IMG/VR virus record: IMGVR_UViG_2711768042_000003 | Length of the DNA stretch: 39,964 bases | DNA from: a virus | Taxonomy: Duplodnaviria; Heunggongvirae; Uroviricota; Caudoviricetes | Strand: one strand, 5' to 3' | In this document: piece after piece, positions 1,535-37,249 of the stretch | Position numbering within the stretch: the stretch's first letter is position 1 | Layout of the letters: each line of letters begins with the position of its first letter | The notes under the pieces: model-generated | Databases searched by the model: none | Told to the model about the DNA's origin: nothing | What the model saw: the letters and a program-made list of their open reading frames with translations, nothing else | Made by a program: the position numbers and the translations under genes

Positions 1535-4500
1535 TCAGCTGATACTGATGCCTGCGGTGGCTTTCTTCATCACCACAACCAGCAAATCACTGATACTTGC
1601 TGTGGGATACCAACCATTTACCCACCATGCTGATACAGAAAACTCCAGCGTCATGTGACCGCGACCAGCAGGCATATCAATAACACCACTGTAAACCAGC
1701 GTATTATCCAGCGCGGTACGGTTATAAATTTCAGCACCGTTTTTCTTCACTATCAGGCGGCATGACGAATAAGTATCGCTGTTCTCCCGCTCATGTCTGG
1801 CACCGCTGAAAGCCACCGCCGGAATAACAATCTGCCGGTCAAACGGCTGATCGTCATAAACCCTGACGGTAATGGTCCCTGATGGCCACCGCTCCGGTGC
1901 ACGGGAGTCCCGGGGGAAAGCTTTGCCCACCGTTTTAACAATATCGCCTTCAATCTGGTTGGCTGACAGTTTTCCCAGAATCCGGCAGTTCTGATTAATC
2001 GTGACATTGTTGAGCGTCCCGGAGTTCGCATTCACGTTACCGCTGATATCTGCATTTTTCGCCGTCAGCCGCCCGTCCGGTGTCAGGGAAAATGCCGGAG
2101 GATTACCGCCGCTGGTAATGGTGGGAGCCGTCAGGTATTTCAGGAACACTTCGTTCATGAATATCTGATCGCCCTGACCAACAAACATCGGCTTTGTGTT
2201 GCCATTCGCAGGATTAATCATCGCAATCCTGTCCGCCGCCAGCAGCACCTGACTCTGCATACCGTCAGGGGTATTCTCAATACCGGCACCAATACCCGCG
2301 ATATAAAGGCGTCCGTCCTGCATCTGCTGCAGCTTCACAGCCCACATGCTGTTCAGGTTATTATTTGTATCAACCTGAACCTTCTGTATCTGCTGGATTG
2401 CCGCACTCTGGTCTTCCAGTTTCTTATTGACGGTCTGCGTGATTTCATTACTGACATCCGTGATGGACGTTCTGATTTCCGCCAGGTCAGGCGCAAGCTG
2501 ACCGTTATCAATCTGCGTCCACAACTCCTGAGCCAGATGGGTTTTCCCTATCTCTCCTTTGAAAAAATTCAGATAGCCGGATGCATCATCACTCGGCTGG
2601 CCAACAGCCTCCACGAATGCCGATTTGCCAACGGTGTTCACACTGCGGATGTAAAAATAATAATCATGGCCCGGTTTGATATTGATACTGGCGGCTATCC
2701 AGTACAGCGCCGTGCCAAGATAGCGTGCTGTGGTTTCAACCTGCCTGATATCCGCAATCCGCTTTTCCGAGAACCAGAACTCAAACTGTACCGTCGGGTC
2801 ATAAACGGCAAGATGCGGCGTGGCGGTTATCTGAAAATACCCCGGTGTCAGCTCAATCCGCGACGGTGCTGCCGGTGCGGCAATCCGGAACGATACCGAC
2901 GCCGGATCGCCCTGCTGCCCCCAGGCATTTGCCGCCCGGACTGTCAGCCTGTAGTTTCCCAACGCCAGTTGCGTGAAGCGGTATGTGGTTTCCGTCGTCC
3001 GGGCCGTGCTGACCAGCCGCTCACTGCCGTCATCCGCTGCCACGGTCAGGCGAAGCATAAAGCTCACGCCCTTCACCACCTTCGGCGTGTCCCAGCGCGC
3101 CAGTACCTGATATTCCCCGCTGTCTGCGGTGACTTCGGCAGTCAGGTGCTGCACCGCTGGCGGCGTGACACCATTCACCGTGCCACTCTGGTCGCCGTCA
3201 AAGTGCGCCCCGTTATCCACGATGGCCTCTTTCTCCGGCACATGCTGCACGGCGGTGATGGCATACGTGCCGTCGTCGTTCTCACGGATACTCACACAGC
3301 GGAACAGGCGCTGACGCAGCATCGGCAGCTTCAGCCCCCACACGCTGTATTCGGCAACGCCGTCAGGAACACGGCTCACTTTTACCTTCACGCCGTCGGT
3401 GACGGACTGGACCTCCACGCTCACCGGATTACCCTGCCCGTCAACCAGGCTTATCAGCGTGGTGCCGGAGGATGGCAGCGTGATTTCACGGTCGAGCGTC
3501 AGCGTCCGGGTCTGGCTGTTCACCGCCAGCACGCGCCCGCCAATGCTGATCCCCGCATAGTCATCATCGCAGATTTCAATAACATCACCCGGTACATGGC
3601 GCAGCCCTTCTGCACCCACGCTGAAGTCCACGGTCTGCGTTTCCAGCAGTTCCGTTTTAATCAGCCACAGCCCGGCGCGGTGCGCCTGCCCCCGGCTGGT
3701 ACAGCCAAAGGCATCCATTTTCGTGACGTTACGACCGTAACGGGCAATGGCCTGCGTGTCCTCCACAAGCTCTGTTGCCGTTTCCCAGCCGTTATTCGGG
3801 TCAATCCAGTTCACCTCAACGGCATTATGGCGGTCCTTCAGGGAGCTGAAACTGTAGCGGAACGGCGCGCCATCATCCGGCATCACCACATTACTGCGGT
3901 TATAGGTCCACACCTTATCCGACGGCCGGTCCTGCACGAACGTCAGCGTCTGCCCGTTCCATACCGGCATACAGCGCATCGCCGAGCAGAAATCACTGAG
4001 CACATCCCACGCCTTGCGCTGTGTGGTCAGGTACGCATTACAGGTGATGCGCGGCTCCGTGCCACCAAAACCATCCGGCACCGACTGGTCGCAATACTGT
4101 CCGATGACATACAGCGCCCATTTGTCCACATCCGCCGCACCAAGACGTTTCCCCATGCCGTAGCGCGGATGGGTCAGCATATCCCACAGACACCATGCCA
4201 TGTTGTTGCTGTATGCCGGTTTAAACGTTCCGTCCCAGATACCGCTGTATTGCCGCCTCTGCGGGTTATAGTTCGACGGCACCTGCAGAATGCGCCCGCG
4301 AAGATGATAATTACGACTCACCTGCTGGCTGCCGAACTGTTCCGAGTCCACCTGCACGCCGACCAGTGCCGTGTTCGGGTAGCACTGTTTCACATCGATG
4401 ATTTCGGTGTATGACGACCAGAGCGTTTTGTTCTGCAGCTGGTCTGTGGTGCTGTCCGGTGTCATCCTGCGCATCCGGATATTGAACGGGCGCGGAGGCA

Positions 4501-5074: not shown

Positions 5075-5746
5075 TCAGCGACCAATCACCACAACCTGAC
5101 CACCATCCCCTTCGTCTGCCGTGCTGATCTCCTGAGAAACCACCCGCGACCCCACACGCATTTCACCGTACAGAACAGGCAGAACATTGCCCTGAGCAAC
5201 CATGTTATCCAGTGAGGAAAAATAGGTGTTCTGTTTGCCGTTATCTGTACTGGCTGCCGTGGACGTCCTGGCTTTCGGTGCCAGCATCTGAGCCACACCG
5301 CCGAGCACCATACTGGCACCGAGAGAAAACAGAATGCCGGTCATACCACCGGCCCCAATGGCTGTCCCCCATGCTGCAAGGGTGGCTCCGGCGGTAAAGA
5401 ATGATCCGGCAATGGCGGCTGCCCCCAGGACAATCTGGAATACGCCACCTGACTTGGCCCCGGCGACTCTAGGAACGATATGAATCACAGCGCCGTCAGG
5501 CAGATCCTCATGTAACTGCGCCGTTAATCCGGACGTGCTGACATCCTGCCCGGCAATACGTACCTGATACCAGCCGTCGCTCAGTTTCTGACGAAACGCA
5601 GGGAGCTGTGTGGCCAGCGCCCGGATGGCTTCGGCCCCCGTTTTCACACGAAGGTCGATGCGGCGGCCAAATCGTTGTAAATCCCCGTAAAGGCAGATGC
5701 GTGCCATGCCCGGTGACGCCAGAGGGAGTGTGTGCGTCGCTGCCAT
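5075..5746 (-). CDS. I: tail assembly protein I
   Basis: 223 aa, same length as lambda I; overlaps the K 3' end as in lambda. Confidence 0.9.
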   Translation of the reverse strand: MAATHTLPLASPGMARICLYGDLQRFGRRIDLRVKTGAEAIRALATQLPAFRQKLSDGWYQVRIAGQDVSTSGLTAQLHEDLPDGAVIHIVPRVAGAKSGGVFQIVLGAAAIAGSFFTAGATLAAWGTAIGAGGMTGILFSLGASMVLGGVAQMLAPKARTSTAASTDNGKQNTYFSSLDNMVAQGNVLPVLYGEMRVGSRVVSQEISTADEGDGGQVVVIGR

Positions 5747-6387
5747 TTGTCGGTATACCTCTCTCGTTTGCTCAGTTGTTCAGGAATATGGTGCAGCAGC
5801 TCGCCGTCACCACAGTAAATGGCGGCATGATTCGGCACAGATGAACCAAAACAGCACAGCAGCACATCGCCCGGCTGCGCCGCTGACAGCGGCACCTGAT
5901 ACAGCCCTGTGGCCTCCAGATTATCCAGATAGAGATTCTGACCGTGACGCCACCAGTCATCCTCACGATGAAAATCCGGCATCTCAATCCCCGCCAGATG
6001 GTAAGCATCCCGGAACAGCGTGTAACAGTCCGTCACCCCGTGCTCAAAGAGCCGCCCGGTAAGATGCGGCACACAGCGGAACTTATGAATCGCCCCCCGG
6101 CAGACCAGCCACCACGGCAAATCACTCTGCACCTGCAGCCGCCGGTCGGCTTCACTCAGCCAGGGCAGACCACCGGGATGGCTGTGCACCAGCGCGACTA
6201 TCTCACCCTGCATTTCTGCCTGCAGCCAGTCTTCCGGCGACATCCGGAAATACGCCTCAGGCTCACCGGAGATATTCACGCAGGGAAAATATCTTTCCCC
6301 CTCCGGCGTTCTCACCACGAAGCCGCACGACTCCGCTGGCGCACATCGCCGGGCGTGCGCCAGAATCGCTGATTCTGTCTCTGTCAT
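5644..6387 (-). CDS. K: tail assembly protein K (JAB/MPN plus NlpC/P60-like)
   Basis: HSHPGG motif and NlpC/P60-like C-terminal half; position between L and I; exact start uncertain. Confidence 0.85.
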   Translation of the reverse strand: MTETESAILAHARRCAPAESCGFVVRTPEGERYFPCVNISGEPEAYFRMSPEDWLQAEMQGEIVALVHSHPGGLPWLSEADRRLQVQSDLPWWLVCRGAIHKFRCVPHLTGRLFEHGVTDCYTLFRDAYHLAGIEMPDFHREDDWWRHGQNLYLDNLEATGLYQVPLSAAQPGDVLLCCFGSSVPNHAAIYCGDGELLHHIPEQLSKRERYTDKWQRRTHSLWRHRAWHASAFTGIYNDLAAASTFV

Positions 6388-21500: not shown

Positions 21501-21518
21501 GTGCGACCACGGTCGCAC
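21501..21518. promoter_or_regulatory. centromere-like palindrome GTGCGACC-AC-GGTCGCAC (sopC-core-like)
   Basis: Perfect 8-bp arms, 2-bp spacer; one of five copies in the window. Confidence 0.55.
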
Positions 21519-21720: not shown

Positions 21721-21738
21721 GTGCGACCACGGTCGCAC
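21721..21738. promoter_or_regulatory. centromere-like palindrome GTGCGACC-AC-GGTCGCAC
   Basis: Identical to the copy at 21501-21518. Confidence 0.55.
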
Positions 21739-22110: not shown

Positions 22111-22578
22111 TTAATTCGGGCATTGCGTCTTGATGTATTCCTGAAGCGTTCTCAGTGCTGTCTGGTCTCTGATGATTCCGTCCCGGATACCGAGAACGTT
22201 TCGTCCAGCAACTGGAGAGAGTTCGACGGTGGCATCATTGCCCATGCCGGAGGCGCTGGAGGTTTCGGCTGAGGATGGCACAGAGCATTTTCCTTTGACG
22301 AGCACCCGACCACCATTATCAAGCTTGCGCCGAAGAGCATCATTTTCAGCTTTCGCATCAGCCAACTCCTTCGTGTATTTTGCATCGAGCGCAGCAACAT
22401 CACGCTGACGCTGCTGCATGTCAGCGATGGTGGCGGTCGCCTGCTTCAGCTCACTGACTTTTTTATCACGCTGTTCTTTGTAGGCGATGGCGTTATCACG
22501 GTAATGATTAACAGCCCACGACAGGCAGACGATGATGCAGATAACCAGTGCGGAGATAATTGCGGTTACTCTGCTCAT
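22111..22578 (-). CDS. Rz: i-spanin Rz
   Basis: N-terminal TM segment and coiled coil, lambda Rz-like over the N-terminal half; start at MSRVTAIIS. Confidence 0.85.
22152..22358 (-). CDS. Rz1: o-spanin Rz1 (lipoprotein embedded in Rz in the +1 frame)
   Basis: [19 protein letters not shown] lipobox followed by a Pro-rich segment. Confidence 0.7.
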
Positions 22579-23075
22579 TGCTGCCCCCACAAACAGACTT
22601 CACGCTCAATCTCACGGCGAGTCATCAGCCCTTTCCATTGCTTACCGCCAGCATATGTCCAGCGACGTAGTTGATCACATGCACCTTTGATATCGCCCTG
22701 GTTGATTTTGCGAAGAAGTGTCGATGTTCTGAAATTGCCTGCACCCACGTTGTAAACGAACGAGTAAAGAGCACCACGCGTTGTTTCCGGTATATCGACT
22801 TTGATGTACGGGTTAATTTGTCTGGCGACAGTAGCAAGGTCTTTATTCAGGAGAGCTTTGCATTCTGCTTCGGTATACGTTTTACCGAGCATAATGTCTT
22901 TTCCTGTATGCCCGTAACATACAGTCCATACACCAACGATGTCTTTGTAGGGGTTATGTCTCACACCTTCCAGACCATCGTTGCCGCTCGGACCAGAGAT
23001 GAGCACAGATGCTATGGCAATAGCCCCGCCACCAATAGCAGTTGCGACAGCTTTGCGTAATGATGACTGCATCAT
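22575..23075 (-). CDS. R: SAR endolysin (T4-lysozyme-like, GH24)
   Basis: N-terminal Gly/Ala-rich signal-anchor-release segment [20 protein letters not shown] followed by a lysozyme-like domain. Confidence 0.85.
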
Positions 23076-23344
23076 ATTTCCTTCGGTGCTCTCTTTCCCA
23101 ATTCACCAATAACCATCGCCGTGGCGGAAATATTATTGGCATCAGTTTTATCCAATATGTCCTGCAATATCTTCGTGCGCTTCATCTGCTCGCGTTTATT
23201 GAGCCGGTATGTAAGTACACCGAGGATAATGCTGAACGCGACACCGATAATGAAGCCCCAATCCTGCAATGACAGGCTGGCAAAGAACGCAGTAAGACCA
23301 GCACTACCATAAGATGCGCTGCTGTATCGTTCATCCATCTTCAT
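23072..23344 (-). CDS. S: holin with dual-start motif
   Basis: 90 aa, starts MKM (Met-Lys-Met), two predicted TM segments, directly upstream of the endolysin. Confidence 0.75.
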
Positions 23345-23439: not shown

Positions 23440-24516
23440 TTACTCAAATAACTTTTTCACTTCATCAACTGTCTGAAGATAACGTTCACCCTCAATCTCA
23501 ATACCGATTGCCTGACGACCTAACTTCAGCGCGGCTTTAATAGTAGAGCCTGATCCCATAAAGAAATCGGCAACGATATCTCCGGGGCGGGAACTACTTT
23601 TTATAATATGTTCCATCATCGCTGCAGGTTTTTCACATGGGTGCTTGCCAGGATAATATTGCACAGGAGGAAACTCCCATACATCGGTATAAGGTACATC
23701 AGCAGTAACATGAAATGGGCGGCGCAAATTTTCATACTGAGCCTTCAAATCATCATACTGCTTCTTTACTTCCTCATAACGCAATTTCAGATCGCTATAA
23801 CGCTTTTCATGTTCTGAATAATCAACATTAAAAGGATATGGACACGGGACACCGAGTGAATCTGCCTTCCTGCGAAATAATTCGCATAGTTTATTAAAAT
23901 CACTTAATGATGGAAGCCGCCACTGCGAATAAGAAAACCAGTGCGAACACATCTGCTTTCCTGTTGCTGAATTAATGTCTGCGGCTGATATATCTAACTG
24001 ACGGCGAGCCAGCGAAAAAGCATCAATTAGTGGAGAAAAAATATTTTTTCTTAAATCTGCACATTTTGAAGCATAACCTGACTGACCTTTAGCATAACCT
24101 GACGCGCCGTAATGCTCTGCAAATAATATTCTTTCAGTGGCAGGAAAATAAGCCCTTAAACTTTCTTTATGACAACCGCGCCACATACCACTGGGTTTAG
24201 CCCAAATGATATGGTTCAGAACATTGAAACGGTCGCGAGTTAATAATTCAATTTTTGACGCAAGGCGAGAGCCGGTAAACATATACAGGCTGCCATTAGG
24301 GGCCAATATCCGCCAAAATTCTGCCAAAAATTCATCAATCCACCCCAAAAAGTCAGCATCGCTATCCCACTGGTTATCCCATGCGTTAGCCTTTACGCCG
24401 AAGTATGGTGGGTCTGTTGCAATCAAATTGACCGAGTTATCAGGGATGGTTTTGATAAATTGCAGAGAATCTGCGCAAACGAGTTGCGCGCCATGAATAT
24501 TAGTGGTTTTGAACAT
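23440..24516 (-). CDS. DNA N6-adenine/N4-cytosine methyltransferase (orphan)
   Basis: DPPY catalytic motif near the N-terminus, C-terminal FxGSGST AdoMet motif; start taken at MFKTTNIHG, upstream ATG at 24561 possible. Confidence 0.85.
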   Translation of the reverse strand: MFKTTNIHGAQLVCADSLQFIKTIPDNSVNLIATDPPYFGVKANAWDNQWDSDADFLGWIDEFLAEFWRILAPNGSLYMFTGSRLASKIELLTRDRFNVLNHIIWAKPSGMWRGCHKESLRAYFPATERILFAEHYGASGYAKGQSGYASKCADLRKNIFSPLIDAFSLARRQLDISAADINSATGKQMCSHWFSYSQWRLPSLSDFNKLCELFRRKADSLGVPCPYPFNVDYSEHEKRYSDLKLRYEEVKKQYDDLKAQYENLRRPFHVTADVPYTDVWEFPPVQYYPGKHPCEKPAAMMEHIIKSSSRPGDIVADFFMGSGSTIKAALKLGRQAIGIEIEGERYLQTVDEVKKLFE

Positions 24517-24650
24517 AGCTATTATTTTTTTGCCTGGGTAAGCTAACCCGGTGATGCGCATCGCGGGTGGGCTTTAGGTTCAGCCTATAGCTCTGGCATG
24601 GGTTGACCGCAGGACAAGCTGCAACTTGTCCTGCGCCCACTTTTCAGGCA

Positions 24651-24676
24651 CAAAAAAACCGCCATAAAGGCGGCTT
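24651..24676 (-). terminator. intrinsic terminator in the late leader
   Basis: Minus-strand GCCGCC-TTTAT-GGCGG followed by seven U; an 11-bp stem hairpin lies at 24609-24636. Confidence 0.45.
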
Positions 24677-24712
24677 GTTGGCTGTTGGGTACAAAAAACC
24701 CAACTTAACAAA

Positions 24713-24741
24713 ACAATAACTAAAAACCGTAATTTTGCCAA
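24713..24741 (-). promoter_or_regulatory. candidate late promoter (-35 TTGGCA, 17 bp, -10 TATTGT)
   Basis: Sigma70-like hexamers on the minus strand upstream of the methyltransferase-lysis operon. Confidence 0.4.
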
Positions 24742-24758
24742 GCTTTTTCGTTTTTGTG

Positions 24759-24780
24759 CTGTGCGACCGTGGTCGCACAG
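24759..24780. promoter_or_regulatory. centromere-like palindrome, extended form CTGTGCGACC-GT-GGTCGCACAG
   Basis: 22-bp perfect palindrome 18 bp upstream of the candidate late promoter -35. Confidence 0.55.
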
Positions 24781-24783
24781 TTT

Positions 24784-25011
24784 TTAGAAAGTTGCCTGCT
24801 TATATTCATCGGTCAAAGAATATCGACCAGACCCGCTACGCTTTGCAACCCCAAAACAGATCATCTGTTCGATGATAAATTCAACGGCAGCTTGACTCAA
24901 AAAACAGGCTTCGCTTAACTCTTTCAGGGAAATGCGTGGGTATCCACGCATAACACATTCCACACTCAGGGCCGCTTCAGTCATATTTCCACGAATTTCA
25001 TTAATATTCAT
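24784..25011 (-). CDS. small winged-helix-like DNA-binding protein (hypothetical)
   Basis: 75-aa ORF, second gene of a two-gene minus-strand operon. Confidence 0.5.
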   Translation of the reverse strand: MNINEIRGNMTEAALSVECVMRGYPRISLKELSEACFLSQAAVEFIIEQMICFGVAKRSGSGRYSLTDEYKQATF

Positions 25012-29557: not shown

Positions 29558-29783
29558 TTTCTTGTGCGACCACGGTCGCACCCTCTCTGATTTCCAAGTA
29601 ACGCTTAATCCAAAGATTTTCTATATGCTTATTACCTGGCTGATTTGATAAATACCAATCGGCAATTACAGACTGCTTATTACTATCTGGTCGTGTCCTG
29701 TAACCACAAGTTGGACACCAGATAACATATTCATTTCTTACCCCCGAATACCTTAATTCCGGCTTCGACGGTTTCCTGAACAT
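29538..29783 (-). CDS. small zinc-ribbon protein (hypothetical)
   Basis: CPTCGY motif; start taken at internal Met to avoid overlap; the longer ORF reaches 29858. Confidence 0.45.
   Translation of the reverse strand: MFRKPSKPELRYSGVRNEYVIWCPTCGYRTRPDSNKQSVIADWYLSNQPGNKHIENLWIKRYLEIREGATVVAQENENNAI
29564..29581. promoter_or_regulatory. centromere-like palindrome GTGCGACC-AC-GGTCGCAC
   Basis: Overlaps the 3' end of one ORF (encoding ATVVAQ) and the initiation region of the next. Confidence 0.55.
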
Positions 29784-29790
29784 AACTTGT

Positions 29791-30501
29791 TTACAAAGGC
29801 AGAATGGCACTTCCTGCCCGATGGCGTTTGATGATTTCACTGCGCTTCTCCGCCGCATTTAATAATGCAGTTCGATTTAAGCTCAGACATCGCGACTTAA
29901 TTAAAAGCCAGCGTTCTTTATAATCTTGTCTCCAGCTATCAATAGATATATTCAGTAGAAAACTCAGCTGCCTGTCCTGTTCTCTATCATCAACTGCCTC
30001 AGCACACGTAAGTTCTGACTTAACCTGCTGTGCCGCGTAATAAATCAATTTTCTCATGGCTTTTTTCGTGGAGGCCTTCATTTTTTTAAACCCGCCACCC
30101 GAATGCGCAACCAGAAAATCAAGCCATAACCACTGACAAACAATCACATCATTGTTGTAGTTAGGCTTGCATCCGTAGCAATAATAAAGCCAGGCTGATT
30201 CCTCGTTATTCAACTGACCAATAGCCCTGCGCCAGCTGGCGCTCTGAAAATCAATATCAGTGAGCAACATTGATGATTGTTTAAATGTTTTGCCCTGGTG
30301 GAATCTAACCGGCTCAGCAGGAACAGACACTTCGTATGAGTTATCATCACCTACACTGATTGACCGGACTGGTTTATTGTTAAAGCGTCCTGATCTGCCT
30401 AGACGCATCTGCTCAAGCTGGACCTCTAGGATGCCACGCTGGCGATAATGAATATCAGCCAATGCCGTGGAGACGCAGCTGCGTATATACTCAAGCTCCA
30501 C
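29791..30501 (-). CDS. hypothetical early protein, possible Q-like antiterminator by position
   Basis: 236 aa directly downstream of the cro-like gene; Cys cluster YYCYGC; no family recognised. Confidence 0.5.
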   Translation of the reverse strand: MELEYIRSCVSTALADIHYRQRGILEVQLEQMRLGRSGRFNNKPVRSISVGDDNSYEVSVPAEPVRFHQGKTFKQSSMLLTDIDFQSASWRRAIGQLNNEESAWLYYCYGCKPNYNNDVIVCQWLWLDFLVAHSGGGFKKMKASTKKAMRKLIYYAAQQVKSELTCAEAVDDREQDRQLSFLLNISIDSWRQDYKERWLLIKSRCLSLNRTALLNAAEKRSEIIKRHRAGSAILPL

Positions 30502-31645: not shown

Positions 31646-34600
31646 ATGACATTAAACGATTTCTATGCGGATCGCTTTGGCAGCGATCCGTTCTCGCTAA
31701 TTGAAGCAGCACGGGATGAACTAACCGAGCTGGCACAGATGGCTGGTATCAACTGGTCTGCCTGTTCCGACAACATCCAACTCAACCCTCGCGGGGGTGT
31801 TGAGCGTTACTCTTCATACAATAAAACATCTCCAGAAGCTCTCGAAAAGAGCCTCAAAGGACGCGTAGAAATTTACTCCCGGCTGGAACACAGCAAAGGG
31901 ATTGATTACCCGTTCATTAACTTCGTCCATAAAGGCAGCGATGCTGGCTCATGGAGCGGTTTCTCCTTCCTGTTTTCTGAATATCGCCGTGAGCAACAAC
32001 GGAATAATGCGACCGTGGTCGCACAACCGGAAGAAGAACGGGCAAGAATAGAACGTCAGGCCGAAGCACGTCGTCGCCGTGAAGAACAAAAACGAATTAA
32101 TGACCTGAAAAACAACCAAATGGACCATGAACGTTTGCTGGGATGGCTGGCATTCCACAGCGCGTGGGAACATGCTCCTGCAGAAGACGGCTCATGGCCA
32201 TATGCGATTAAAAAAGGTATTCGTGACGTTTTTAATTCGTGTGATGTGCGTCGCGTGACCAGTCACGACAGCGCAAAATGGAGCAGGGGGCCAACCACGT
32301 ATATGGCTATCCCTCTGGCTCACCTGGACGGTCGTTACGATGGTCGTATTGTGGGTTGGCAGCGAATCGACAAACAAGGTGGAAAATACCAGACCAGCGC
32401 CGTAACCAGCGGCGATTTCGTCGGTGCCTGCTTTGTTATCGGTGAGCTAAAAGGGGCGCAAAACATCGCTGTTACAGAAGGTTTTGCTACTGGTGCATCC
32501 ATCTGGCTTGCCACGAAAAAAGATAAACGCTTTGACGCTGTGGTTGTCGCTGTATCCGCTAATAACATGGTTCATGTTGTGGAACAACTGGTAAACATGT
32601 ACCCGGCGGCAAAAATCACCTGCGCACTGGATAATGACCGGAAATCAGCCACAGAAGGAAAAGGGAATACCGGCCTGCGGACTGGCTATGAAATCTTATC
32701 GAAATTCAACGATGTCCGCTGCGTCTATCCAACTTTTGAAGACGATCCGCAAATGGAGTGCAGTGACTTCAACGACCTGCACAAACTGCGTGGACTTCGT
32801 GAAACAGCACGTCAACTGTTTGCAACTGCAAACCGCCTGAAAACCGGCACTGATTTGCTATCTCTGACGCTCAACCGCCTGAAGACAATTAAGCGGGATA
32901 ACCGTCGTACTTTTGCCAAAGAGCTGCTGAGAGCGGTGGATATTGGCATGCTAACCTGTCCGGTTCCTAACAGTCCGTCAGACTTATTTAACATGTTCTG
33001 CATCGTTCTGCGTGAAATGGGGCTGGAAAATATCTATCGCGCTACGGTAAAAGACCACATTGCCCGTCGCCTGAATAAAAAGTGCCGTATTGCCCAGGCT
33101 CCGCGCTCATTCAGCGAACGCATAACTGATCCCAATAAACGTCCTCAACATATCACCTATAAGCGTTTTGAAACTTCGGTAATGACCGATGACGTCCTGA
33201 AGTATGTGCAATCACTACAGGGGATAGTCATCGTTCGTGCTGGTATGGGTTCCGGCAAATCTACTGGATTGTTACGACCTTTAATGCATAGCTCAGAACG
33301 TGGTATCTCTGTTGCTCACCGTGTTTCCCTTATTGGTGGCCTGTGGGAAATGATGACAGAAGGAAAAGGTGTAAAAGCCGATATCCTGCACTATCAGGAC
33401 CCTGGCTATCAGGAAATGGCTCCATACGCCAGTAAACTGACCATCTGCATAAACTCGATTGTTAAAAACTGCTGGCAACCGTTGATGCGCCAGCACGACT
33501 ATTTTGGCTTTGACGAGGCCACGCAAGGGCTACGTGCCGTTCTTTCCGGTCGGGCTATGGAAAACCCGGTGGCTGTATTCAATACGTTAATCGACGCGCT
33601 GGCCAGAACGGAACAACACCCAATAATGGTGGATGCTGATGCGAACGATCTGCTGGTTGACCTGGCTGAACTGGCTATGAAACGCCGTGAAGAACTAGGT
33701 TTACCGGCATGGCTGCAGATCCACGTAATTGAATTACCTGTTGATGTTCGCAACCGCGAAACAGGTGAGCCAATCCGGGTTTTTTATACAGAAAAAGATC
33801 GCATTATGACCGAGGTGGTGAAAGCTGTATCGGATGGCGAAAAAATCATGTTGGCCACCGACAGCTCCACCTTTGCAGAAGATGTGACAGCCACCCTGAG
33901 AATGCATTTTCCTGGTAAGAAATTTCTGTGTGTAAACCAGAAAAACAAACCAGAGCCAGAAGTTGAAGCATTTACCAATCAACCGAAAAAGATGGTCAAA
34001 AAATACGACGGCCTGATTTATAGCCCGTCTATTTCATCCGGTGTGTCGATTGAGCAAAAACATTTTGACCGTCATTTCGGCATGTTCTGTGGTGAAGTTG
34101 TACCCAGCGACGCAGTGCAAATGCTACGCCGCGACCGTACAGCAAAAGAATTTATTATCGGCTTTGATAAAGCTCGCGCAAAACGTGAAACTGACCCGCA
34201 AAAAATAGAACGAGCATTCGCCCAGGCATTGCTTGCTACCGCAGGCATGAACGGTGAACTGACGGATGTCGTTTTCGATGGCGACCGTATATCAATGGGG
34301 GTGGCCAATACCGACTTTACCAGGATGAAAATTAAAGCAGCCGCAATTGAAGCGTCTGCGCGTAACGACTACGCCAGCAACATGATCTGCATCATGCACA
34401 GCGACGGTTATAAGGTATCGCCGCTGGCCACCGATTATGCTGCGAATGATATCGGTAAAGATCTGCGTAAAGAAGCGCGGGATATTGTGTGGGAACAGAC
34501 ACTGGATCTGCATCTCAATACAGAAACTCCACAAGAATCAGAGCGTGAAGAACTGCTAAAAAAACGCGCGCTGACGCTTGAAGAACAAGCAAAACTTGTC

Positions 34601-36970: not shown

Positions 36971-37083
36971 TTGACGTGTGCGTCGTTTTGGAGGTAAAGT
37001 CACCTCGCTGCGGTAAATCCCGCAGTCGGGACTTCGCAATCCTGGCAAAACGAAGCGCACAACACGCGCCAGCGTGTTTTTTT
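36971..37083 (+). ncRNA. candidate small regulatory RNA (c4/CI-like) with promoter and terminator
   Basis: Possible -35 TTGACG, 18 bp, -10 TAAAGT; stem-loop 37008-37025; terminator ACACGC-GCCA-GCGTGT plus U-run at 37062-37083; no long ORF. Confidence 0.35.
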
Positions 37084-37249
37084 GTGTGTATAGACCTGCG
37101 CATATCCGAATTATGGTGGCTCAGGTGGGGCTGACTTCGGTCGGGCCGGTTTCTTCGTTTACCGGTATTGCGAACCCCGCCTGGGCTACCACCAATAAAG
37201 AGATTCGCAACTCTGGTGGTAGCACGACCAATAAAACGGAGTGCATACC

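Follow-up and report, generated by a model that had tools for sequence, protein, structure and literature searches.

The intergenic region ahead of the methyltransferase, holin, endolysin and spanin genes raises the question of how late transcription is switched on in this virus, and whether a partition protein has a part in it. The DNA analysed here (the window) is the whole stretch of 39,964 nt. In the original prediction the region was read as a late promoter of lambdoid type with an antitermination-dependent terminator, served by a distant Q-like gene and adjoined by a centromere-like palindrome. All of the sequence features described there were found on the minus strand, i.e. the palindrome, the hexamers at a spacing of 17, the hairpins and the U7 terminator (Table 1). 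Comparison with related phages makes it very probable that the region is the orthologue of the late-transcription control region of phage N15, and that it would work by the steps proposed below.

Judged by its sequence, the window is an N15-like linear phage-plasmid (Ravinvirus), an assignment based on sequence identity, gene order and plasmid-only occurrence. Over the 800 bases around the feature, identity is 99.9% to Escherichia phages YDC107_1 and PhiR46_1 (genus Ravinvirus), 76% to phage N15 and about 68% to Klebsiella phage phiKO2; for the intergenic region alone, identity to N15 is 83%. Homologues of telN, repA, cB, cro, Q, gp50, gp51, gp52 and the small terminase subunit gene lie in N15 order. 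The succession of gp50-gp51, intergenic region, and DNA methylase-holin-endolysin is common to the window and N15, and the intergenic DNA itself can be aligned. Among 5426 complete E. coli genomes, 16 contain the intergenic region, on a plasmid in every case. The sequence features, the orthology and conservation, the protein families and the covariation within the leader (see below) are all direct observations.

Two side observations concern other parts of these genomes. The YDC107_1 record (L090, CP025712.1) has its right arm repeated in inverted orientation around the protelomerase region (about nt 32000-46701) and carries no sopAB; it looks like a fold-back assembly through a hairpin telomere, and since the arm expected to bear sopAB is missing from it, the record could not be used to locate these genes. 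On the plus strand of the window, adjoining Rfam matches to isrK (52.8 bits) and C4 antisense RNA (82.3 bits), the sole families matched anywhere in the window at gathering score, occupy nt 37007-37196, a position that presumably fits the anti-immunity (antirepressor control) locus of N15.

Table 1. Features of the late control region, its surroundings in the window, and leader copies in other phages
Feature	Position (nt)	Strand	Remarks
Palindrome, 22 bp, perfect	24759-24780		putative N15-type SopB (ParB) site; positional homologue of N15 IR3
-35 hexamer TTGGCA	24736-24741	minus	invariant in N15-type group; minus_35_signal in N15 and phiKO2 records
-10 hexamer TATTGT	24713-24718	minus	homologous to annotated minus_10_signal (N15 TATCTT, phiKO2 TATCGT)
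TTTGT-TAAGTTGG block	24700-24712	minus	most conserved block of the region, more so than the hexamers
Leader hairpin 1	24684-24704	minus	7-bp stem GUUGGGU/ACCCAAC (DNA GTTGGGT/ACCCAAC), 7-nt loop; retained in relatives
Intrinsic terminator GCCGCC-UUUAU-GGCGG + U7	24649-24676	minus	annotated terminator in N15 and phiKO2
Structured leader, about 133 nt, helices P1-P5	24514-24646	minus	between terminator and methylase ATG; covariance model R1
Long hairpin = helix P2	24608-24635	minus	14-nt arms, 93% complementary; 12 pairs in the fold
Helix P4 dyad (GCGATGCGCATCAC here)	24547-24568	minus	palindromic through its centre in most lineages
gp51 homologue, 75 aa, winged-helix-like	24784-25011	minus	ends 3 bp before the palindrome
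N6/N4 DNA methyltransferase, first late gene	23440-24516	minus	PF01555, E = 1e-46; start as in YDC107_1
Holin	23072-23344	minus	Pfam match
Endolysin	22575-23075	minus	Pfam match
Rz-type spanin	22111-22590	minus	Pfam match
Q antiterminator gene (Q82 family)	29791-30501	minus	overlaps the end of cro; PF06323, E = 4e-85, full length
SopB-site copy	29564-29581		about 210 bp downstream of Q; positional homologue of N15 IR2
SopB-site copy	32007-32024		inside repA; positional homologue of N15 IR1
SopB-site copies (two)	21501-21518, 21721-21738		between lysis genes and terminase gene; N15 IR4 region
Leader copy, SfV	L087 2510-2646
Leader copy, Stx2a_1447	L089 2998-3134
Leader copy, Morganella phage	L088 3300-3438

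The two hexamers match the consensus at 9 of 12 positions and are separated by a 17-nt spacer. Promoter-like sites of this kind are not in excess in the window (14 found, against 15.6 expected from shuffled sequence), and the hexamers alone are not significant; nor are terminator-like sites rarer than chance would have it (11 found, 8.9 expected in shuffled sequence). The promoter and terminator are considered real because they are conserved in the same order, and not because they are rarer than in shuffles. The GenBank record of N15 (AF064539) has homologous -35, -10 and terminator features in the interval from gene 51 to gene 52, and at the homologous places the phiKO2 record has a "putative late promoter", a "terminator" and a "putative plasmid partitioning site", the last of these at the counterpart of the palindrome. 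The elements of the region all occur in unchanged order in N15, phiKO2, PY54 and 11 further lineages, and conservation across 15 lineages takes in the promoter, the TAAGTTGG block, hairpin 1, the terminator and its U-tract. The predicted late promoter and antitermination-type terminator thus have homologous annotated counterparts in both N15 and phiKO2.

Either TAAGTTGG or a one-base variant of it is present in 15 of 15 lineages, always about 5 nt past the -10 hexamer, and the block includes an invariant -10-like TAAGTT at about -1 to +5. The transcription start is probably near nt 24706, within this block, and by analogy with lambda TTTGT-TAAGTTGG is a candidate for a sigma-dependent pause and Q-loading element. 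When the promoter region was compared with those of lambdoid phages that have Q82-family proteins, no likeness was seen, so that no Q-binding element can be named. A scan with promoter patterns found no antisense promoter on the plus strand near nt 24500-24650. The genes gp50 and gp51 lie co-oriented just upstream with no terminator between, and read-through transcripts would therefore also enter the leader.

The terminator stem (nt 24676-24656) has five G-C pairs and is followed by seven U (nt 24658-24652); stem and U-tract are invariant in the 15 lineages, while the loop varies. Folding of the 58-nt short leader gives z = -3.8, and that of the 197-nt leader z = -4.9. The terminated transcript is predicted to be about 55 nt long. 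Neither hairpin 1 nor the terminator shows compensatory double changes in relatives. Covariation was rejected for hairpin 1, where changes are one-sided and wobble-compatible only and their count does not exceed that in shuffles. The original prediction had listed a hairpin with an 11-bp stem after the short hairpin and the terminator. The hairpin exists, but it is no part of the antitermination unit, being helix P2 of the structured leader described below; its reading as a second terminator was also rejected, as it has no U-tract and is part of a leader that is found without the promoter as well.

A short motif, (A/G)TGCCTGAAA, follows the N15-type terminator. It is also seen after unrelated terminator hairpins ahead of the leader in phages of Morganella type (about nt 1290-1330 in L062 and L070, about nt 4770-4802 in L102). 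In phages of Stx type, another terminator hairpin directly precedes the leader.

The candidate antiterminator gene was correctly picked out as lying beside cro and far from the promoter. Its product belongs to PF06323, which is the Q82 family according to the family names used in PMC9388147, and is 67% identical to N15 gp40, a protein annotated as "late transcription activator" whose gene likewise adjoins cro. From the stop of Q at nt 29791 to the -35 hexamer at nt 24741 there are 5.05 kb and about 15 genes, and the layout of N15 is equal. In lambdoid phages Q genes normally occupy equivalent positions beside their target, immediately upstream of the promoter (PMC7171158); this is not so here, and a gap of about 5 kb is an oddity for which N15 is already known. 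Among solved structures there is no sequence relative of the Q protein. Two elements of a lambdoid-type Q unit are nevertheless in place, namely a Q-family gene and an intrinsic terminator between the promoter and the late genes, and the methyltransferase-holin-endolysin-spanin operon that had been named as the target is borne out by Pfam matches, in the order methylase, holin, endolysin, spanin and then terminase.

The closest known system is the N15 unit gp51-IR3-promoter-terminator-gp52 (AF064539, nt 41124-41250) with its Q-like gp40. The window shares with it the gene order, the -35 hexamer, a homologous -10 hexamer, an identical terminator stem with U7, the 18-bp SopB core at the matching place and a Q gene beside cro about 5 kb away. 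It differs in the central dinucleotide of the site (AC here, AT in N15), in having five copies of the site rather than four, in a Q protein that is only 67% identical, and in the first half of the spacer between the hexamers. As in pR'-qut-tR' of lambda, an intrinsic terminator stands a short way past the promoter and before the lysis and structural genes, and by analogy it would be overridden by Q. Unlike in lambdoid phages, Q is 5 kb off, a partition site abuts the promoter, and the predicted short RNA measures about 55 nt. Short late transcripts of this kind are known as 6S RNA in lambda and as StxS in Stx2 phages. A late promoter of this type is always active, and the short RNA that ends at the terminator can serve as a regulatory small RNA (PMC7547250).

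For the start site, the pause site, the dependence on Q, the effect of SopB and the function of the leader, we infer the following course of events. The sigma-70 promoter TTGGCA-17-TATTGT would start transcription near nt 24706, and unmodified RNA polymerase would make a leader of about 55 nt, consisting of hairpin 1 and the terminator, and stop at U7. The operon of methylase, lysis, head and tail genes would stay off because polymerase stops at this terminator. After induction, the Q82-family antiterminator would be supplied by the early operon beside cro, 5 kb away, and would load on to polymerase paused just past the start, for which the invariant TAAGTTGG is the candidate pause and loading site; polymerase carrying Q would then be terminator-resistant. 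The palindrome, with its centre about 63 bp upstream of the start, would be a SopB site, acting both as centromere and, as the title of a paper on N15 (see below) has it for that phage, as a helper of late expression. The long hairpin past the terminator would be part of a separate leader which in many phages accompanies the first late gene and probably has a role after initiation.

The palindrome consists of two 10-nt arms, 100% complementary, around a central dinucleotide (CTGTGCGACC-AC-GGTCGCACAG, reading from nt 24780 to 24759 on the minus strand). It lies upstream of the -35 hexamer as predicted, with 17 bases between the two and not 18. It contains the published core of the N15 SopB centromere, GTGCGACCNNGGTCGCAC (nt 24761-24778), so that its description as centromere-like proved apt, and N15 IR3 (nt 41124-41141) aligns with it. 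The N15 centromere sites IR1-IR4 are printed in Table 4 of PMC7205306 and have the common core GTGCGACC-NN-GGTCGCAC, a pattern to which the palindrome conforms. The 18-bp core has five copies in the window, where 0.01 would be expected, and these mirror the positions of N15 IR1, IR2, IR3 and IR4, i.e. in repA, after Q, before the late promoter and near terminase. One of the N15 centromere sites is located within repA (PMC2847241). In place of the single IR4 of N15 the window has two copies, 220 bp apart; N15 IR4 itself overlaps a feature annotated as a terminator. On this evidence the palindrome is a predicted binding site for the partition protein SopB. Homologue comparison found neither sopA nor sopB within the 39,964 nt of the window; the near-identical PhiR46_1 encodes ParA and a ParB that is 75.6% identical to N15 SopB. 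On the plus strand (nt 24754-24780) the palindrome is followed by TTTTT and resembles an intrinsic terminator for antisense transcription, an arrangement that is not conserved in N15.

Sites of a related kind are known from sopC of the F plasmid. The palindrome core is identical to the N15 IR sites, and the N15 and F SopB recognition sites differ by one position per half-site (PMC2910045). The sites in the window are dispersed single copies and not a tandem array, and the copy considered here stands beside a promoter. A palindrome lies upstream of the promoter in 14 of the 15 related lineages and comes in four half-site types, GTGCGACC (N15 type), TTGGGACC (PY54 group), GTGGGGCC (L029) and GTGGGACC (L077). 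The sites at the matching place in relatives of the PY54 group are of GGGACC type, which we take to be the type of F sopC. From the centre of the palindrome to the TAAGTT anchor the distance is 62-64 bp in N15-type sequences and L029, 50-51 bp in PY54-type sequences and 94 bp in L077, so that the steps between distance classes are about 11 and 32 bp, or roughly one and three helical turns; the phasing rests on three or four independent distance classes only, and 48ST307 has a second copy whose distance, 109 bp, does not fit the phase. This pattern argues that the pairing of site and promoter has been selected and that it is perhaps helically phased, the independent classes being few, and it suggests that SopB may act on the promoter in a manner that depends on the face of the helix.

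Ravin, Rech and Lane (2008, J Bacteriol 190:3538) reportedly found that the Sop system of N15 "facilitates" the expression of late genes. The direction and mechanism assumed here for SopB follow the title of that paper, and text searches of the literature found no paper describing the mechanism by which Sop affects late expression. The tie between partition protein and late transcription that was originally proposed accordingly agrees with the title, but the word "gated" goes beyond the published "facilitates".

It is unlikely, though not far-fetched, that the palindrome is a centromere only, placed beside the promoter incidentally (for instance where intergenic space was the sole room) and with no effect on transcription. 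Elsewhere in the window the site is found within repA or in gaps between unrelated genes, the promoter occurs in lineage L027 with no palindrome, and in L077 the palindrome is as far as 94 bp away; against this, adjacency is kept in 14 of 15 lineages through changes of site type (GCGACC, GGGACC, GGGGCC), the distances fall into the clusters given above, and by its title the 2008 N15 paper reports that the expression of late genes is affected. That title, with its "facilitates", also weighs against an effect of opposite sign, in which SopB bound at the palindrome would spread and silence the late promoter in the plasmid prophage, as a brake and not a helper. ParB and SopB do spread from their sites, SopB-mediated silencing has served as an assay (PMC7205306), and the palindrome is only 17 bp from the -35 hexamer, but the terminator would already block the late genes in the prophage, and we consider such a brake very unlikely.

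Less likely again is a switch that does without Q, for example gp51 or read-through from gp50-gp51, with the terminator as an ordinary attenuator. The gp51 homologue is 73% identical to N15 gp51, with a weak HTH_24 match and weak similarity to SfV orf47; a winged-helix-like protein encoded so close to the palindrome would suit such a role, SfV, Stx2 and Morganella phages likewise have a small winged-helix gene ahead of leader and methylase, and no element for the binding of Q could be identified. All these phage-plasmids have, however, a full-length Q82-family gene, its N15 homologue is annotated as the late activator, and a promoter with a short leader and a strong U7 terminator has the classical layout of a Q target. 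The small winged-helix gene, moreover, lies downstream of the Q-controlled terminator in the lambdoid relatives and is therefore itself a late gene. A Q-dependent promoter with a SopB site as helper remains the preferred reading.

Past the terminator, the extent of the leader is set by the start of the methylase gene. The original prediction implied a start at nt 24561; the ATG at nt 24516 is most likely the true one, in keeping with the annotation of YDC107_1 and the alignment of relatives, and the leader therefore extends to nt 24517. No Shine-Dalgarno sequence is obvious ahead of the methylase gene, and its ATG directly follows the end of a stem. In N15 (L004, nt 41386-41621) gp52 is annotated as 285 aa with a start well inside the frame, while an upstream ATG aligned with nt 24516 is kept; the start given for the N15 methylase may thus be wrong. 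The idea of a small ORF within the leader was rejected, as there are indels among relatives and the phiKO2 frame stops after five codons.

The leader sequence is conserved ahead of homologous methylase genes in phages that have no N15-type promoter. A covariance model (R1), for which eight sequences of phiKO2 and PY54 type were used, detects it on the mRNA strand in each of the clades, with 38.6 bits (E about 2e-7) for the window, 58-60 bits for SfV, an Stx2 phage and a Morganella phage, and 23-27 bits for Vibrio phages. In the model-fitted alignment (43 distinct sequences), 89.8% of cells are paired, a share that is 69.5% for shuffles and 29-46% for slid partners. Changes on both sides are seen in 25 of the 29 leader pairs and in 10 of the 11 in P2, and covariation is strong in P2 and P4. 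P1, P2 and the core of P4 are recovered independently by RNAalifold. A plain MAFFT alignment with RNAalifold yielded P1 only, which is why the covariance model was needed. The 5' UGGGC is able to pair with either of two downstream CCCA motifs. Rfam has no match to the leader at gathering score and nothing meaningful up to E 10 in nt 24400-24900, and none at the homologous leaders of SfV, Stx2, Morganella, phiKO2 and PY54 phages; weak matches (AgrB, ctRNA, Trp leader and others) were rejected, since only terminator hairpins were matched.

Reading downstream, the SfV, Stx2 and Morganella phages have Q, promoter and terminator, small winged-helix gene, leader and methylase, and their Q proteins are of three different families, so that all three Q families are represented. 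A tie of the leader to one Q family was rejected accordingly. A pattern scan of viral contigs matched 120 stretches; among the 80 listed loci that were tested, 13 proved to be true leader copies, followed by an N6/N4 methylase gene in 11 contigs, a C5 cytosine methylase gene in one and a holin gene in one. The last two cases are lambdoid phages with the 5' leader domain (L107, nt 3305-4464; L147, nt 5743-6254), and in the contig with the holin it is this 5' domain only that is present. With these two loci, exclusive association with N6 methylases was rejected, and the leader appears to mark the start of the late operon and not one methylase family.

The long hairpin and the rest of the leader might be dyads at the DNA level, i.e. 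sites for dimeric proteins or cruciforms; we regard this as rather doubtful, but as deserving real weight. In about 15 of 17 lineages the palindrome of P4 runs through its centre and leaves no loop, the non-Watson-Crick cells of P2 on the mRNA strand are A.C in 21 cases against G.U in 4, and many P2 hairpins fold better on the complementary strand. P1, on the other hand, pairs segments about 60 nt apart, P2 has a real loop of 6-7 nt with semi-conserved sequence, the stems vary in length and bulges with both-side changes in nearly all P2 pairs (see above), G.U pairs occur in the lambdoid clade, and the mRNA strand is certainly transcribed in late expression.

A structured RNA leader is preferred on these grounds, and its role would probably lie in the processing, stability or translation of the methylase mRNA, a view favoured because the methylase gene lacks a Shine-Dalgarno sequence, a stem stands right before its ATG, and the context is widespread. 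Phage Mu has, in com-mom, a system of translational control of a phage DNA-modification gene. As there, a late DNA-modification gene lies behind a structured leader in the window, but the window has no com-like gene and no sequence similarity to mom. In the Vibrio phage relatives (L038, about nt 1330-1440; L039, L072, L078 and L080) a small zinc-ribbon ORF (MTLLKELRCPHCNKLLC...KCSRCK) lies between leader and methylase; from its sequence it looks like a Com-type zinc ribbon, which hints at translational control of the methylase. Tentatively, then, the leader may quite possibly be a cis-acting element, undescribed and widespread among temperate phages. It would be a folded RNA, perhaps combined with a dyad in the DNA at P4, and would control the processing, the stability or the translation of the first late gene, in most cases one for a DNA methyltransferase.

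The late control region as such is already known biology, covered by the annotation of N15 and phiKO2 and by the 2008 N15 paper, and as a re-identification of the control region in an N15 relative the finding matters little. What may be new is the comparative evidence for a selected pairing of centromere and promoter, and a structured leader that is not in the catalogues. That the pairing is kept across changes of specificity gives comparative support to a coupling of partition and the late switch. In the Stx2 phage examined, the leader stands ahead of the methylase gene, which itself lies ahead of stx2. Many E. coli prophages contain a close copy of this Stx2-phage version, the Stx-type leader being present in 1854 of 5426 complete E. 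coli genomes (34%), with up to seven copies per genome. If it controls the expression of late genes or of the methylase, the leader would be a common, overlooked regulatory element.
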